30,358 nucleotides of DNA from Myxococcota bacterium (GCA_036126975.1 JAYYRS010000489.1:1-30358), one strand, 5' to 3'. Counted from the first letter of the stretch, positions 579 through 17,768 are shown. A program made the numbers and translations. The notes: generated by a model from the sequence alone, not told the origin.

Positions 579-2057
579 CTACCGCAGCGGACTCTTGGCC
601 TGGCAGATGTCCAGACCCCGGAGGAAGTCGTTGGGACCGAGGGCGAGGTCCTCCACGCACTGGGCGTAGCCCTTGGATGCGTTGCAGACCTCGACACATC
701 TTTCCGCGTCGAACGTCTCGGCGAACCTGTACTTGGGGGCCGTGTATTCGGACTCGTCGACATCCCCCGACCGGGACGCCTCCCGGGCCTCGTTGATCCA
801 CGCGGCCCGCGCCGCCGCCATCCGCGCCTCGTAGAGGCTGGGGATCGCGTTGCACGCCGCATCACAGCGACCCGCGCGCGTCAGCCGCTCGTCGAAGTCG
901 GGGTTGCTGACGCCGCCGGGGTCGCGCCCTTCCGACGGCTCGTCCAGGTACGCGAGGCTGGTGTTGGTCTGGGCCGGGTCGATCAGCCGGAAGGACTTGA
1001 TCTGGGGCCAGGCGCCCGCCGGGAGCGGACCGACCGCGACCTCGGAGTCCCGCGCGGTGAAGGCGAGCTCGATGTCGCAGTCGCCGCTGGTGCGCTGGGC
1101 GGACACGGTCGCCTTCGCCTCCATGGTCTGCATGCCGTACCAGGCGTTCCGGTCCCCGAGGAGGTGCATCTCCTGCTTGGGCAACGCGACCTTCTGGCGG
1201 GCGACCGGGTAGACCACCTCCTTGCTCAGGTCGTCGAGCCGGGCGGCCCCCGTCTTCAGTGCAGTGGTGAAGAGGGCGCGCTGCACGGCGTAGCCCAGGT
1301 CGAGGGGGATCTCGCGGCTCGTGCCGGAGATCCGCCAGCGGGCCGCCTTCACGGCCTCGGGGTCCAGCTTCGCGACGTCGCCGATGATCTCGACCGGGAT
1401 CTCGATCACCCGCTTCTTCTTGGTCGTGACCCGCAACACATCGTCGGCATCATCCGCGACCAGCGGCTTGGGCGCGTACAGCGTCAGGCGCAGGTCCACG
1501 GGGCTCCGCGCACCCTCGAGTGCGCCCAGCACCCCCGAGAACAGCACCGACCCCATGGTGCTCGTGTTCAACGCAACCGGCTCGTTCTTGATCTGGCCCA
1601 GGATCTGGTCCCGGGGCTCGATCGCGTCCGCGGACACGCCGAGCTGGTCGAGGAATGCGTCGGCCATGTTGTCTGCGACCGTCAGCCGACCGCGGATGTC
1701 ATCGCCATCGCCGAAGCAGAACCGCTCGCCGCGCGTGGCCGACCCGAGCGCGGACCCGACCTGCTTCAGCGTCGACGTGATGGAGCCGGACGCGCCCCAC
1801 CCCACGGACACCAGGTACTGGTAGCCGTCGTCGGTGGCCTTGAACTCGCCGGAGCGGGCCTTGGCGCGGAGGAGCTGCGAGGCCAGGGCTTCGGTCAGCG
1901 AGTCTCCACCCGTGACGCTCGCCACGGCGTTCGCCTCCCGGTTGTCCATCGCCTCCCGGTAGGCCTCGGCCTGGCGGTACTCGGCGAGTTCCTTGCCGGG
2001 GGCGGGGGCAGCGTCCGCGCTGCCGACGAGGCTGAAGAGCAGGATCGAGGAAAGCAT
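579..2057 (-). CDS. Secreted hypothetical protein (492 aa) with Cys-rich C-terminus
   Basis: Signal-peptide-like MLSSILLFSLVGSADA. Its start overlaps the upstream gene's TGA by 1 nt (TGATG). C-terminal CDAAC...CVEVC...C...C. Confidence 0.8.
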   Translation of the reverse strand: MLSSILLFSLVGSADAAPAPGKELAEYRQAEAYREAMDNREANAVASVTGGDSLTEALASQLLRAKARSGEFKATDDGYQYLVSVGWGASGSITSTLKQVGSALGSATRGERFCFGDGDDIRGRLTVADNMADAFLDQLGVSADAIEPRDQILGQIKNEPVALNTSTMGSVLFSGVLGALEGARSPVDLRLTLYAPKPLVADDADDVLRVTTKKKRVIEIPVEIIGDVAKLDPEAVKAARWRISGTSREIPLDLGYAVQRALFTTALKTGAARLDDLSKEVVYPVARQKVALPKQEMHLLGDRNAWYGMQTMEAKATVSAQRTSGDCDIELAFTARDSEVAVGPLPAGAWPQIKSFRLIDPAQTNTSLAYLDEPSEGRDPGGVSNPDFDERLTRAGRCDAACNAIPSLYEARMAAARAAWINEAREASRSGDVDESEYTAPKYRFAETFDAERCVEVCNASKGYAQCVEDLALGPNDFLRGLDICQAKSPLR

Positions 2058-3200: not shown

Positions 3201-4229
3201 TCATCCACCCAGGGCAGCCAGCTGCGCGAGGGCCTTGTCGTAGCGCGCCCGCCGCTGCGGCGAAAACAGCATCCCTGCATCCTCGTAGATGAACTCCCCG
3301 AACCGCGGCACATCGTCGTCGTGAAGGTCGAACCAGTGGTTGCCCGCCTTGCTGAGCTGGATCTCGGACACGTTCCAGCCGCGCTGGCGCAGCGTCTTGT
3401 GGAGGTCCCGCATCCGCCGCGGCTCCGGATGTGAGAACGCCAGGCCCAGCCGGCGCTTCTTCTTCCGGAAGCACAGGATCCCGCACACGTCCGTCACACC
3501 GCGCCAGAACTCCGCGCTGTCCGAGCCGGAAACGGAGACGATCGTGCTCAGGGCCGCCGGATCGGGGAGGTCGCGCCCGCGGAGTGTCAGGATGTGTTCC
3601 TCGACCTCACCCCGCGGGGAGAGGTGGGGTCGGTGGATGTTGAACCGGGGCCGACGCTTCCGGGTCTCCTGGATCGCCGCATCCCATCCCTCCAGGAACA
3701 TCGCACCGACCGCCGCATCCGTGGTGACGATCTGGACCTGCTCGTCGCTCCGTCGCCCCTTGCCGAAGGCGTAGCCCCAGAAATACCGCTGGAAGGGGTC
3801 TTCGCTTGGCCGCTCCGGCTCCAGCTGGAAGCGGCTGCCGTACGCCTCGACCCAGGACCGGAAGAAGGCGTGGTGCTCCGGGATGGGCTCCTTGTCGCCC
3901 GCCCAGTTGTAGAAGCTGGGGAAGGTCATCGTCAGCGGCGGCTTCTGATCTTCGCGAACGCTCGCGGCATCCGGCCAGAAGCCCAGCACCGGGGTCATGC
4001 CCTCGCGCTCCCGGATCGCCGCGTAGGAGAGCGTCCGGTGTCGAAGATGCAGGTGACTTCGGGACTCGGAGGTCGCCGCGCTGCGGTGGTACACCGTCAC
4101 CCAGTCCCCATGCTCCTTGATCGCCAGGTCGTCCCCGCGAAGCTCGGTCGTCCCGTACGGATTGCGGAGGATGACCACCTTGCAGCGGGACAGCATGTGG
4201 CGGACGAGTCGGGGCAGGGTCCAGGTCAC
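3201..4229 (-). CDS. ChuX/HutX-like domain fused to a degenerate LAGLIDADG-like domain; candidate regulator
   Basis: GTG start with GGAGG SD. N-terminal ~140 aa align by hand at about 45% identity to 16355-16843. C-terminal half has two LAGLIDADG-like helices (YFWGYAFGKG, EFWRGVTDVCG) and the tail FGEFIYEDAGM...RRARY. CDS is secure; domain calls are by eye. Confidence 0.8.
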   Translation of the reverse strand: MTWTLPRLVRHMLSRCKVVILRNPYGTTELRGDDLAIKEHGDWVTVYHRSAATSESRSHLHLRHRTLSYAAIREREGMTPVLGFWPDAASVREDQKPPLTMTFPSFYNWAGDKEPIPEHHAFFRSWVEAYGSRFQLEPERPSEDPFQRYFWGYAFGKGRRSDEQVQIVTTDAAVGAMFLEGWDAAIQETRKRRPRFNIHRPHLSPRGEVEEHILTLRGRDLPDPAALSTIVSVSGSDSAEFWRGVTDVCGILCFRKKKRRLGLAFSHPEPRRMRDLHKTLRQRGWNVSEIQLSKAGNHWFDLHDDDVPRFGEFIYEDAGMLFSPQRRARYDKALAQLAALGG

Positions 4230-4432
4230 GGAAGGCCTCCGGGCGTTTGGGTCACGGCCGCACCCTGCGTCCTATTCCAACTTCCCTCCCGATGTCGCCG
4301 TTTGGGCTCGTCCGCCGACTCGATGGCACGCGGACGGCCGCGACACCGTGGGCGCCGCACCCGCGCGGAGGGGCCCCACCAACGGCGCCCCCAGAGCGGG
4401 GTTCTCACGGCACCGGCACATCGGAAAAGTGA

Positions 4433-4461
4433 TTGTCTCGTCCTCGACCCTCCGTTACGTC
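4433..4461 (+). promoter_or_regulatory. Weak sigma70-like promoter candidate for the cbi operon
   Basis: TTGTCT (4433-4438), 17 nt, TACGTC (4456-4461), just upstream of the riboswitch. The -10 lacks the final T. Confidence 0.3.
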
Positions 4462-4477
4462 AGTTGCCTTCCATACG

Positions 4478-4624
4478 TCTCCCCAGGGCTTAGGGAAGCC
4501 GGTTCGAATCCGGCACGGGCCCGCCACCGTGATCGGTCAGGCTCTGTCACCAGGCCACTGGGTCGTTGACCTGGGAAGGCGACAGGGACGACGGCCGTAA
4601 GTCGGGAAACCTTCCTGGGCGAGA
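4478..4624 (+). ncRNA. Cobalamin (B12) riboswitch
   Basis: AGGGAA (4492), T-loop arm GCCGG-TTCGAAT-CCGGC, ACGG-GCCCGCCA-CCGT arm, GCCACTG...TGGGAAGGC, and 3' AAGTCGGGAAACC. Closing helix TCTCCCCAGG (4478-4487) pairs with CCTGGGCGAGA (4614-4624). Lies upstream of cbiA. Confidence 0.92.
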
Positions 4625-4867
4625 AGACCACCGGTCCTCGGGTACAGGACTGCGTCCTCCGCGTGGGTCGTGCCGGGAATCTCTGGTACGCCGCGCTCCC
4701 CGCCAGGCCGCCCACGCCTGCCGCCGGGACCCGGACCGACGCACTTCCCTCTCCGGGGCCGGTCGCCCCGAGCACCGACGCCTCGTGAACCGCAGACCCC
4801 CCATCTCCCCGCAACCGGCCGCCCCGGCCCGTCTCCTCCCCGCCCGACGGCGCGCCGAGGGCCGGTC

Positions 4868-14836: not shown

Positions 14837-15517
14837 ATGGCGAAGACAAAATGGGCGACGGTGACGGGACACGAGGACCTCGGTGGCGGGGTCCACCGCA
14901 TCCACTGTCTCGCAGACGAGCCTCTCCACCACGTGGCAGGCAACTACGTGATCCTCCGGAGCACCGTCCCGAACCCCGACAAGCCCGGTGAGGTGCTCAA
15001 GAAGGCGTACTCGATATCCAGCGCGCCCGATGCGGAATCGCCCCAGCGATTCCACTTCACCATCGTCGACGTGGGCGCGATGAGCGCGTGGCTTGCGAGC
15101 CAGCGCGTCGACGGGCGCGTGGAGTTCTCCGGCCCATGGGGAAGGCGGTTCCGGGCCCAGCCCGATGACCCAGACGGTCCCGTCCACCTGTTCGCGACGG
15201 GCACGGGGTTCTCCCCGGTCGGGGCGATGGCCATCACGCGGAGTCGTTCCGGGGCCACGCCGGTCGGCGTCTGGTGGCAGACGGAGCACACCTACGACGA
15301 TGGGGTCCTCGCCGCACTGAAGCAGGACCCGCGGTTTTCGGTCACCGTCGGTGCCCACGTTGCCGATGCCGTACCGGCCGAGCCCGAGGCCCTGTACTTC
15401 CTCGCCGGGGATGGCGCCGTCATCATTCCGCTGTGCGAGCGACTCGAGCAGGCCGGCGTGCCCGACGCGCACATCCGAACCGAGTTCTTCTTCAACAAGC
15501 CCGCCAAGCCGACATGA
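14837..15517 (+). CDS. Ferredoxin-NADP+ reductase-like FAD-binding oxidoreductase
   Basis: GNY, KAYSISS (RxYS-type), GAMS, GPWG, FATGTGFSP, C-terminal TEFF. Confidence 0.85.
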   Translation: MAKTKWATVTGHEDLGGGVHRIHCLADEPLHHVAGNYVILRSTVPNPDKPGEVLKKAYSISSAPDAESPQRFHFTIVDVGAMSAWLASQRVDGRVEFSGPWGRRFRAQPDDPDGPVHLFATGTGFSPVGAMAITRSRSGATPVGVWWQTEHTYDDGVLAALKQDPRFSVTVGAHVADAVPAEPEALYFLAGDGAVIIPLCERLEQAGVPDAHIRTEFFFNKPAKPT

Positions 15518-16362
15518 CGAGACCATCGCCAGGCGGGCCGGGCTGCGAGCCCGGCGTGGTGTATCTGGTCGGGGCGGGCCCGGGGGACCCGGGCCTGTTG
15601 ACCTGCCGTGCCCTCCGCCTCCTGGAGACCGCCGAGGTGGTCCTCCATGATGCACTCGTCACGGAAGAGGTCCTCGCCCTGTCGCCCGGGGAGCGGGTCA
15701 ACGTCGGCAAGCGGTCCGAGCACCACCTCGCCCGGCAGGGCGGGATCGCAGCGATGATGGTGACACAGGCCCGGCAGGGCCGACGCGTCGTCCGTCTCAA
15801 GGGCGGAGACCCCGGCATCTTCGGTCGCGGAGGGGAGGAGATGCAGTCCCTTCGCGCCGCCAACGTGCCCTACGAGGTTGTGCCGGGCGTCACCTCCGCA
15901 CTCGCTGCCAGTGCGCTGTCGGGGATCACCCTCACCCACCGCAAGCTCTCCGGCGCGGTCACGCTCATGACGGGTCATGCCGCCGCCAGGACCGACCGGG
16001 GCATCCTCCGGTACGAGGTCCTGGCAGAACTCGACCACACGCTGGTCGTGCTGATGGGTCTGGCGCGCCTGCCGGTCATCGCAGACCGGCTGCTCGCAGC
16101 CGGTCGGGACCCCGAGACACCCGTCGCCGTCGTCCAGGCCGCCTCTACCGCAGGTCAGCGGACCATTCGGGGCACGCTCCGCAGCATCTCTGCGGTCGCG
16201 GAGGCGGCAGGGATCGCGAGTCCGGCCACGGTCATCATCGGTCCAGTGGCCGCGTTGTGCGATGAACTGGCCTGGCGCCCGGACCGACTCGGTCCCGAAC
16301 CCTACCCCCCGGGCGCACGCGTTCATCTTCCCCAGCCGGATGACGAGGCCGCCGATGGCTGA
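15514..16362 (+). CDS. cobA: Uroporphyrinogen-III C-methyltransferase (SUMT), canonical motifs
   Basis: VYLVGAGPGDPGLLT, VGKR, VVRLKGGDPGIFGRGGEE, VPGVTS, LTHR, LVVLMG. ATGA overlap with the FNR-like gene. Confidence 0.93.
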   Translation: MTRPSPGGPGCEPGVVYLVGAGPGDPGLLTCRALRLLETAEVVLHDALVTEEVLALSPGERVNVGKRSEHHLARQGGIAAMMVTQARQGRRVVRLKGGDPGIFGRGGEEMQSLRAANVPYEVVPGVTSALAASALSGITLTHRKLSGAVTLMTGHAAARTDRGILRYEVLAELDHTLVVLMGLARLPVIADRLLAAGRDPETPVAVVQAASTAGQRTIRGTLRSISAVAEAAGIASPATVIIGPVAALCDELAWRPDRLGPEPYPPGARVHLPQPDDEAADG

Positions 16363-16843
16363 TCGACCCCGCCGGACCACTCTCGGGTCCCTGATCGAGA
16401 GCATGCTGCCCCGCTGCGGTCCCATCACCCTCCGCAACCCGTTCGGTGTGATCGAGCTTCGGGGAACGGATCTCTACCTCCGGCGGGGACGGACGCTCAG
16501 CCTCTACCACCGGGAGGCCCAGCGTGGAGAGGCGCGCAGCCACGCGCATCTCTACGTCTCCGGCCTGTCCTGGGCCCGCGTTGTCGAGCGGGATGGCATC
16601 ACGCCTCGCCTCTCGTTCTGGCCCGACGCACGAGAGGAGGAGGAGAAGGCGCCCCTGACCATCGCCTTCCCGCGGTTCTACGACTGGTCGCGCGTTCCCA
16701 TCCCGGACAATCGGGCCCACTTCGCGGCCTGGGTGTCGAAGCACGGACGCACGTTCATCCTCGAGCCGGATCCACCGGTTGCGCGCTCCCGTCGCGCTGC
16801 AGCGGGCTTTCCCGGCAGCGACCAGGTCGGAGGGCCGGGGTGA
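16355..16843 (+). CDS. Stand-alone ChuX/HutX-like protein (162 aa), paralog of the N-domain of 3201-4229
   Basis: 8-nt overlap with the cobA stop. Shares LRNP[YF]G..ELRG, YHR, RSH.HL, TP.L.FWPD, PLT..FP.FY.W and PIP...W...[YH]G..F.LEP with 3201-4229. Confidence 0.8.
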   Translation: MADRPRRTTLGSLIESMLPRCGPITLRNPFGVIELRGTDLYLRRGRTLSLYHREAQRGEARSHAHLYVSGLSWARVVERDGITPRLSFWPDAREEEEKAPLTIAFPRFYDWSRVPIPDNRAHFAAWVSKHGRTFILEPDPPVARSRRAAAGFPGSDQVGGPG

Positions 16844-16986
16844 CACCCCACCGGCACGCCCGCTTCCTGTCCCTCTCCACCGCTGCGCACCCTGCAGCCC
16901 GCCGCCAGCGGCGTGGCGGGGCCGGGCTCCGCGGCGCCCCCACGGTCCGGATGGCAAGGCCTCCAACCATTACGGCGGTCCGATGA
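16840..16986 (+). CDS. Possible 48-aa bridging mini-ORF
   Basis: GTG overlaps the upstream TGA (GTGA 16840-16843); its TGA overlaps the next ATG (ATGA 16983-16986). Arg/Ala-rich; no recognisable homology. Confidence 0.3.
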   Translation: MTPHRHARFLSLSTAAHPAARRQRRGGAGLRGAPTVRMARPPTITAVR

Positions 16987-17768
16987 AGGTGGCGCTTGTC
17001 GGTGCCGGACCCGGTGCGCCCGACCTGATCACGGTACGGGGGCTCCAGCGAATCCAGCACGCCGATGTCGTTCTGTACGACCGTCTGGTCTCTCCCGCCC
17101 TCATCGACCACGCTCCGGCCCACGCGCGTCTGGTGAATGTGGGAAAGGCGCCCGAGCGCAGGCGCTTTCCCCAGGCGGAGATCAATCGTCTGCTCGTGGA
17201 GGCAGCCCGGAGCGGCCTGCGCGTGGTCCGGCTGAAGGGGGGTGATCCCTTCGTCTTCGGTCTCGGTTCCAGCGAAGCGAGCGCGCTGGCGGACGCGAAG
17301 ATCCCATTCGATGTCGTCCCCGGGCTCACGGTTGCGGTTGCGCTTCCCGGCCTCGGAGGCGTCCCGCTGACGGTGCAGCGGATGGTCACGGCGTTCACCG
17401 TGCTGAGCGGCCACCATCCGCCCGGACATCCGGAGGCCGCGGACTTCGACCGGCTCCCGCGGAACAGCACCCTGGTCGTCCTCATGGGGCGACGCCATCT
17501 GGGCGCCATCGTCCAGCGTCTTCGCGAGACCGACTGGAGCCGGGACACACCGGTCCTGCTGGTGGCGTCGGGCACGACTGCAGAGGAGCAGACGGTGTCC
17601 ACCACCCTCGCGGACGCCGAGCACGCCGCTCGACCCCTGGGCGCACCGATGACGATGATCATCGGTGCAGGTGTCGCCTTCCGGGAACACCTCCTGCCCT
17701 GGCTGCATCGGGTCCATCCGGAAGAGCAGCCGTCCGCCTGGGGGACCGCACGGGAACCCGGCTCGTAG
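16983..17768 (+). CDS. Second SUMT-like tetrapyrrole methyltransferase with divergent catalytic motifs
   Basis: VALVGAGPGAPDLITVRG, VLYDRLV, VGK, VVRLKGGDPFVFG; but FGLGSSE replaces FGRGGEE and LTVQR replaces LTHR. Confidence 0.88.
   Translation: MKVALVGAGPGAPDLITVRGLQRIQHADVVLYDRLVSPALIDHAPAHARLVNVGKAPERRRFPQAEINRLLVEAARSGLRVVRLKGGDPFVFGLGSSEASALADAKIPFDVVPGLTVAVALPGLGGVPLTVQRMVTAFTVLSGHHPPGHPEAADFDRLPRNSTLVVLMGRRHLGAIVQRLRETDWSRDTPVLLVASGTTAEEQTVSTTLADAEHAARPLGAPMTMIIGAGVAFREHLLPWLHRVHPEEQPSAWGTAREPGS

Follow-up and report, generated by a model that had tools for sequence, protein, structure and literature searches.

On the way to B12 (cobalamin), biosynthesis passes about 20 tetrapyrrole intermediates that are labile, oxygen-sensitive and in part inhibitory, and the handling of these intermediates is only partly understood. 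The locus described here raises the question whether a small protein with a fold known from heme carriers takes part in this task. It was found in a stretch of 30,358 nucleotides from a Myxococcota bacterium (GCA_036126975.1 JAYYRS010000489.1:1-30358; this whole stretch is called the window in the following), where a cbi operon contains, between two genes for the uroporphyrinogen III methyltransferase SUMT, a gene to which we refer as X. Judged from its sequence and its surroundings, X is a good candidate for the binding or sensing of pigments of the B12 pathway. The more specific reading that we favor, i.e. that X is a non-enzymatic carrier or buffer for a tetrapyrrole of the corrin pathway, is put forward tentatively, its probability falling slightly short of an even chance. 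For the early-cobalt route as present in abundant marine bacteria, X is a tangible candidate that can be tested at low cost.

16355-16843, plus strand: gene X, encoding a stand-alone protein of 162 amino acids (aa) with a HemS/ChuX-like fold, of an unnamed family (from translation, AlphaFold2 (AF2) model, fold matches and purifying selection).
16345-16362, plus strand: GAGG ribosome-binding site (16345-16348) together with the 8-nt start/stop overlap ATGGCTGA (read from the sequence).

On translation, gene X is an open reading frame (ORF) of 162 codons. Its ATG (16355) and the TGA of the upstream SUMT gene share the 8 nt of the overlap, and the GAGG is located 6 nt before the ATG. The identical 8-nt overlap between SUMT and X is present in a homolog of 69% identity (L003 6810/6817). 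Overlap and GAGG taken together suggest that translation of X may be coupled to that of SUMT. Alternative starts are given by an in-frame ATG at 16340 and by the start at 16262 of the ORF list; since the homologs begin at the position of 16355 (alignment A1), this codon was taken as the start of X. The GC content by codon position (0.70/0.56/0.82) resembles that of the neighboring genes. Comparison of X with the L003 ortholog gave values of 0.22 for non-synonymous (pN) and 0.85 for synonymous differences (pS), with the synonymous sites being saturated, and in marine metagenomes from independent samples 18 clusters formed at 90% identity were found at 62-79% identity to X. X is a real gene under purifying selection. 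Furthermore, a contig from a seawater metatranscriptome perfectly matches positions 16298-16474 and bridges the SUMT/X junction, and a second contig from an RNA library matches the interior of X (16490-16673) with one letter being different. As such libraries can carry DNA, these contigs may be taken as weak support for the expression of X. The metagenome-assembled genome (MAG) carrying X has a size of 4.08 Mb and is 69% complete, and its host organism is present in many seawater metagenomes.

The fold of X was assessed on its AF2 model (predicted local distance difference test score, pLDDT, of 80.6). In this model, X shows the saddle of antiparallel beta-sheet with flanking helices by which the HemS/ChuX fold is defined. 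When the model was compared with solved structures, the highest scores were obtained for 3fm2 (11.9), 3na2 (10.2), ChuX (9.6) and HutX (8.3), followed further down by PhuS (7.2), ChuS (6.6) and HemS (6.2), and the next structure, which has an unrelated fold, scored 3.2. A shape search of the ESM atlas with X returned ChuX_HutX, LFE_1968-like and HemS clusters, including ChuX_HutX domains fused to radical-SAM tetrapyrrole enzymes. By analogy, these fusions would provide a precedent for the ChuX fold as a delivery module.

The initial annotation of this DNA had described X as ChuX/HutX-like. For the fold this holds true, whereas membership in the family could not be upheld. X itself had no matches in Pfam (E<=1) or NCBIfam, and 25 divergent members of its family (alignment A2) matched neither PF06228, PF05171, PF22684 or PF24724 nor any other Pfam model; ChuX, included as a positive control for the Pfam scan, scored 121.7 bits. 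Fused or eukaryote-like members of the family had no Pfam match either. Nothing was found for the X family among the PDB sequences searched with phmmer and with a profile, the comparison of the X family profile with ChuX by hhalign was not significant (probability 0.2%), and BLASTP of a GNAT-fused family member against ChuX yielded only a 10-residue match (LKIFL). A search for PF22684 in 150 genomes of the phylum gave 0 matches, which carries no information as the controls were silent as well. Going by its model, X has the HemS/ChuX fold, and by the profile searches it stands outside the Pfam ChuX/HutX family. When ChuX was placed into the X family alignment by MAFFT, H65 came to lie on His98, E78 on Glu111 and T83 on Thr119; this placement agrees with the structurally aligned ranges but is not statistically supported. 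ChuX His98 is reportedly one of the two histidines implicated in heme coordination (Suits et al. 2009).

Two entries from the structure searches concern the naming of such proteins. The best cluster match in the AlphaFold DB bears the name MepB, an identity that was rejected because X is without any Pfam match. The MepB-named match A0A1N6J3L4 is 30% identical to X (template modelling (TM) score 0.78-0.83) and is probably a member of X's own family under an automatic name. In A0A450YS68, a protein of 599 aa named precorrin-3B C17-methyltransferase, residues 494-581 partly match the X model (TM score 0.40 by query, probability 1.00); judged from this match, it may be another fusion of X's fold to a corrin enzyme.

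The family of X is rare. An exhaustive HMMER search of 1.84 billion representatives retrieved 49 proteins at E<=0.001. In the phylum, the domain was present in one of 401 sampled genomes, which is X's own, and in none of 40 relatives of the same family or order; a pattern scan derived from alignment A1 found no match in 185,579 species genomes. Across the 25 divergent members of alignment A2, five residues are invariant, namely E34, E59, H63, H65 and T83.

16454-16456, plus strand: codon of E34 (alignment A2).
16529-16549, plus strand: codons of the motif E59-x-R-S-H63-x-H65, which contains three of the five invariant residues (alignment A2).
16601-16603, plus strand: codon of T83 (alignment A2).
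16784-16816, plus strand: C-terminal tail of the X clade, R-S-R-R-x-x-A-G-F-P-G-S, residues 144-154 (alignment A1, which covers this tail).

The signature of the family reads E-x-R-S-H-x-H-L, followed by T-P-x-L-x-F-W and F-P-S-F-Y-D-W, and aromatic residues are abundant (10-25 per approximately 140 aa). The C-terminal tail of X is predicted to be disordered (pLDDT of about 50) and is absent from other branches of the family; being conserved in the X clade, it is a candidate docking peptide on the basis of the model. The proteins of the X clade range from neutral to basic in net charge and most other members of the family are acidic; the ligand is not decided by charge. Other architectures occur as well. 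In P0046 and P0047, a GNAT acetyltransferase is fused to the X domain, and the longer proteins P0045, P0060 and P0065 contain the domain in divergent form, twice in P0045 and P0060 and otherwise once, and have lost the S-H-x-H motif. From their sequences, the latter three look like eukaryotic, secreted proteins.

The window contains a second copy of the domain, and these two copies are the only ones in the genome.

3795-4229, minus strand: X-type domain, residues 1-145 of the 342-aa protein encoded at 3201-4229 (48% identity to X).

The initial annotation had recognized this paralogy to the N-domain of a putative regulator, with an identity of about 45% estimated by hand; BLASTP now gives 48% over 138 aa with an E value of 1e-40. 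All five invariant residues are kept in both X and the fused paralog. The C-terminal half of the 3201-4229 protein is a LAGLIDADG_4 domain (PF26411 is precomputed for the protein and for all its orthologs); in its shape it corresponds to archaeal LAGLIDADG_4 clusters that bear the label cobalamin biosynthesis protein. In a maximum-likelihood tree, X and its orthologs form one clade with a support of 99/99, and the fused domains are found in a different clade, where they group with stand-alone proteins of other organisms. Because of these separate clades, X and the fused domain are not sisters and their duplication is old. The co-occurrence of both paralogs, which had been named as a check on the idea, was observed in a second lineage, a Myxococcota MAG in which both are encoded on one contig of 56.6 kb (ACON4U_20795 and ACON4U_20855). 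The cob layout of this contig matches that of the marine contigs bearing the 69% ortholog.

In the window, X is part of an operon for B12 synthesis that is headed by a cobalamin riboswitch.

4469-4632, plus strand: cobalamin riboswitch heading the cbi operon of X (Rfam RF00174, 87.7 bits).
15514-16362, plus strand: canonical SUMT/CobA of 282 aa, conserved upstream neighbor of X (true start 15514; TIGR01469, 275 bits).
16983-17768, plus strand: divergent SUMT paralog with FGLGSSE instead of FGRGGEE (TIGR01469, 244 bits).

The operon runs on the plus strand from CbiA, CbiD, CbiC and CbiET through three more tetrapyrrole methylases and CbiG to CbiX with a ferredoxin-like tail, DUF3209, an FNR-like protein, the canonical SUMT, X and the divergent SUMT; downstream of it, CbiM, a COG0523 GTPase and a WD40 protein are encoded on the minus strand. 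The overlap of X with the cobA stop codon and its position between two SUMT genes, both claimed earlier, are thus correct in view of the 8 shared nucleotides and the two TIGR01469 matches. The synteny of SUMT and X is kept in L003-L008.

The linkage of X homologs to cob genes, a point raised by the initial annotation, was followed up in twelve contexts from different branches of the family, and it is borne out by several of them. In the 69% clade, the order is CbiX-DUF3209-FNR-like-SUMT-X-CobO-CbiA-CbiD behind a riboswitch. Both copies in the window, X and the fused paralog, are linked to B12 genes, and the fused paralog of the second lineage is oriented divergently to an operon that comprises divergent SUMT, GHMP kinase, CobQ, CbiB and CobD/U. 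P0029 is found in the order CobU-CbiB-X. The stand-alone member P0025 (L023 574-993) is flanked by two cobalamin riboswitches, of which the downstream one drives CbiX, and in P0061 (L013 7001-8113, 370 aa) the C-terminal half of the domain is joined by a proline-rich linker to a canonical SUMT; none of the upstream frames encodes the N-terminal half of this domain. Beside P0061, a TonB-receptor operon of divergent orientation is driven by a cobalamin riboswitch (L013 6578-6780, minus strand). A looser link exists for P0028, which comes after an ATPase and a CbiQ-type T component of an energy-coupling factor (ECF) transporter, and for P0031, which closes a string of genes that opens with the B12-dependent MetH. 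No heme uptake or utilisation genes were seen in the twelve contexts. The B12 linkage of the X family recurs in separate branches. Three relatives have a DUF3209-type cbi cluster like that of X without X, among them G011 (96% complete), where the order is CbiG-CbiX-DUF3209-unnamed ORF-SUMT-BluB/CobT; X is thus an accessory and not a core enzyme of the pathway.

Some further details of these loci were noted. The two riboswitches beside P0025 (L023 346-508, minus strand, and 975-1131, plus strand) lie within 1.9 kb, and the second one overlaps the end of P0025 and precedes a CbiX gene. P0028 overlaps the end of the CbiQ-type T-component gene by 4 nt (L012 2074-4876), a double ABC ATPase gene precedes the latter, and upstream there is a gene for a secreted protein containing F5/8 type C and NADase_transloc domains. 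In G011 (L022, G011:C62, 11136-12887), a fusion of a BluB-like nitroreductase and CobT comes after SUMT and is followed by a TP_methylase and a FecCD permease.

According to the mechanism we favor, X would be a small cytoplasmic and probably non-enzymatic tetrapyrrole binder, in which the HemS/ChuX fold has been turned from heme utilisation to B12. It would be made from the riboswitch-controlled cbi transcript, with its translation coupled to that of SUMT/CobA. We infer that a tetrapyrrole of the corrin pathway may be held in the pocket of the curved beta-sheet. Ligation of a metal or of the NH groups of the pyrroles would fall to His63/His65 and Glu34/Glu59, and stacking on the ring to the many conserved aromatic residues. 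The ligand could be the product of SUMT (precorrin-2, sirohydrochlorin), a later cobalt-corrinoid or cobalamin itself. X would then buffer a labile or inhibitory molecule and pass it on to the enzymes of the pathway, possibly by means of its disordered tail, and the domain of the fused paralog would use the same pocket as a sensor. All characterised proteins of the HemS/ChuX fold hold a tetrapyrrole and pass it to a partner enzyme or modulate this partner (PMC10404700, PMC12670364). SUMT exerts control over the flux in B12 synthesis and is subject to inhibition by its substrate as well as by corrinoids (PMC5282855), which provides a rationale for a binder at the position of X. A prediction of the complex between X and the upstream SUMT dimer scored 0.00 against a mark of 0.32, a result that counts neither for nor against an interaction.

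Several points weigh against a tetrapyrrole carrier. X has no homology on the sequence level to any heme-carrier family, so that its binding of a tetrapyrrole is argued from the fold only. The five invariant residues (two Glu, two His, one Thr) could just as well form a metal site or a catalytic site, and the fusion P0061 lacks the His motif together with the domain half in which this motif is located. Four of the twelve contexts (P0026, P0035, P0024 and P0034) have no adjacent B12 gene. Finally, the ligand is not narrowed down by the contexts, because they span the first committed step, genes for the nucleotide loop, uptake and a B12-dependent enzyme. Going by the genes found in them, a finished corrinoid accounts for this spread no less well than an early intermediate does, and the early intermediates that had been suggested initially (uroporphyrinogen III, precorrin-2 and sirohydrochlorin) would not be favored over a finished corrinoid.

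Other roles for X have to be weighed against this. Since both paralogs share a contig in two lineages, i.e. in the window and in the Myxococcota MAG, and since both keep all five invariant residues, X could act as a partner of the ChuX-LAGLIDADG_4 protein and tune its output, either as a competitor for the ligand that sets the threshold of the response or in a mixed dimer. Furthermore, the reference list of PMC12670364 contains entries that present ChuX as regulating ChuS, its relative with two domains, and PhuS as a DNA-binding regulator. However, in the tree the regulator domain branches with other stand-alone members and not as the sister of the X clade, and stand-alone members are found in B12 loci where no LAGLIDADG_4 gene is visible, albeit on short contigs. 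We therefore regard a partnership of this kind as rather improbable, roughly one chance in a handful. Still more doubtful is a role as heme binder that would signal or buffer heme where heme and B12 synthesis part ways at uroporphyrinogen III. SUMT is the branch-point enzyme, heme binders are among the nearest solved folds, and the non-significant MAFFT placement puts the invariant H65 on ChuX His98, but no heme uptake or degradation gene is located near any family member examined, and the recurrent neighbors are cobalamin-specific genes and cobalamin riboswitches.

The invariant residues themselves also allow two different readings, each of which we consider improbable to a similar degree as heme binding. 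Residues like E34, E59, H63 and H65 typically make up sites for Co(II), Ni(II) or Fe(II), so that X could bind a free metal by its two His and two Glu, most plausibly Co(II), and serve the CbiX chelatase by chaperoning or buffering cobalt. The window encodes CbiX, CbiM and a COG0523 GTPase, and one family member follows the ATPase and the CbiQ-type T component of an ECF transporter. This reading is at odds with the structural relatives, which bind tetrapyrroles and not free metals, with the unusual richness of the family in aromatic residues and with the conserved neighbor SUMT, which acts before metal insertion, while CobU/CbiB beside other members act long after it. Alternatively, the invariant Glu, His and Thr could be catalytic and X, encoded directly after SUMT, could be an enzyme acting on a pathway tetrapyrrole, either in the oxidation of precorrin-2 to sirohydrochlorin in place of SirC or in a ring modification like that by ChuS/HemS. 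The operon indeed lacks a precorrin-2 dehydrogenase, and the search for this enzyme (PF13241) in the 69% complete genome of X and in G011 returned only weak, generic matches (E of about 1e-4), none of them convincing. G011, however, which is 96% complete and has the same cbi cluster, lacks both X and a convincing PF13241 match, and for this reason X is not the filler of the SirC gap. In addition, the contexts of the family are not bound to one step of the pathway, and the single-domain ChuX/HutX proteins are carriers and not enzymes. As an observation in its own right, both genomes have the CbiX-type pathway, which needs sirohydrochlorin, yet no convincing PF13241 protein.

Returning to the carrier reading, X can be set beside several known proteins. 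ChuX of E. coli O157:H7 (PDB 2ovi/6u9j) and HutX of V. cholerae (PDB 5exv), both of PF06228, have no detectable sequence similarity to X. X is without the first 35-40 or so residues of ChuX and has its own invariant E/E/H/H/T set, and it is encoded in a B12 biosynthesis operon behind a cobalamin riboswitch, whereas ChuX/HutX are encoded in heme utilisation operons under the control of Fur. Ava_4353 (PDB 3fm2) and the Leptospirillum protein 3na2 (LFE_1968-like, PF22684) are structural-genomics proteins without a shown function and add no mechanism; their model PF22684 matches no member of the X family. A functional analogy, and no more than this, is proposed with CobE, which Deery and co-workers reportedly described in 2012 (Nat Chem Biol) as the substrate-carrier protein of the aerobic B12 pathway and which is, to our knowledge, the one named carrier of B12 intermediates. 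Like CobE, X would be a small non-enzymatic protein from a B12 operon that binds and protects labile intermediates. The fold of CobE is unrelated (CbiG_C-like, PF01890); X has no PF01890 match, and it is the CbiG of the operon that carries this domain. We know of no CobE-like carrier described for an early-cobalt operon of the CbiX type. The 3201-4229 paralog resembles CoaR of Synechocystis, a MerR regulator with a CbiC/CobH-like tetrapyrrole-binding domain (PMC7689651), which is a precedent for the reuse of a tetrapyrrole-binding module of the B12 pathway as the sensor domain of a DNA-binding protein. CoaR differs in its binding fold, in its DNA-binding fold and in having no stand-alone paralog in the operon.

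What is new in X is a known carrier fold with a sequence family and a conserved site of its own, in a new pathway context; in the literature searched, no paper was found that ties ChuX, HutX or HemS to cobalamin synthesis. Going further, X might constitute, together with the sensor domain of the 3201-4229 protein, a new, corrin-specific branch of the HemS/ChuX fold, with X as the first dedicated carrier for an intermediate or corrinoid of the early-cobalt (CbiX-type) route, which would hand its ligand on or feed the status of the product to SUMT and to the LAGLIDADG_4 protein. We consider this wider proposal less likely than not. X gives a handle on the ligand of the ChuX-LAGLIDADG_4 protein and thereby on the function of the LAGLIDADG_4 family of archaeal B12 operons. 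In addition, a protein that relieves the inhibition of SUMT or stabilises intermediates would be useful in B12 production strains.

The region downstream of X was inspected as well. X and the divergent SUMT gene are 139 nt apart, and no terminator-like site, promoter-like site or stable RNA structure was found in this spacer. The spacer (16844-16982) and the intergenic region between the regulator gene and cbiA (4229-4469) share several 9-11-mers, e.g. CGGCGCCCCCA and CGCACCCTGC, in differing order. A shared operator, for which these two regions and the L014 intergenic region were compared, was rejected, as the few unordered 9-11-mers are probably due to chance at about 70% GC. The divergent SUMT itself is 61% identical to the product of L014 8662-9447 (minus strand). 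In this second lineage, the gene opens the late cob operon (followed by GHMP kinase, CobQ, CbiB, CobD/U) and is divergent from the ChuX-LAGLIDADG_4 gene. Given this conservation in a second lineage, the divergent SUMT is a maintained component and not a decaying copy.
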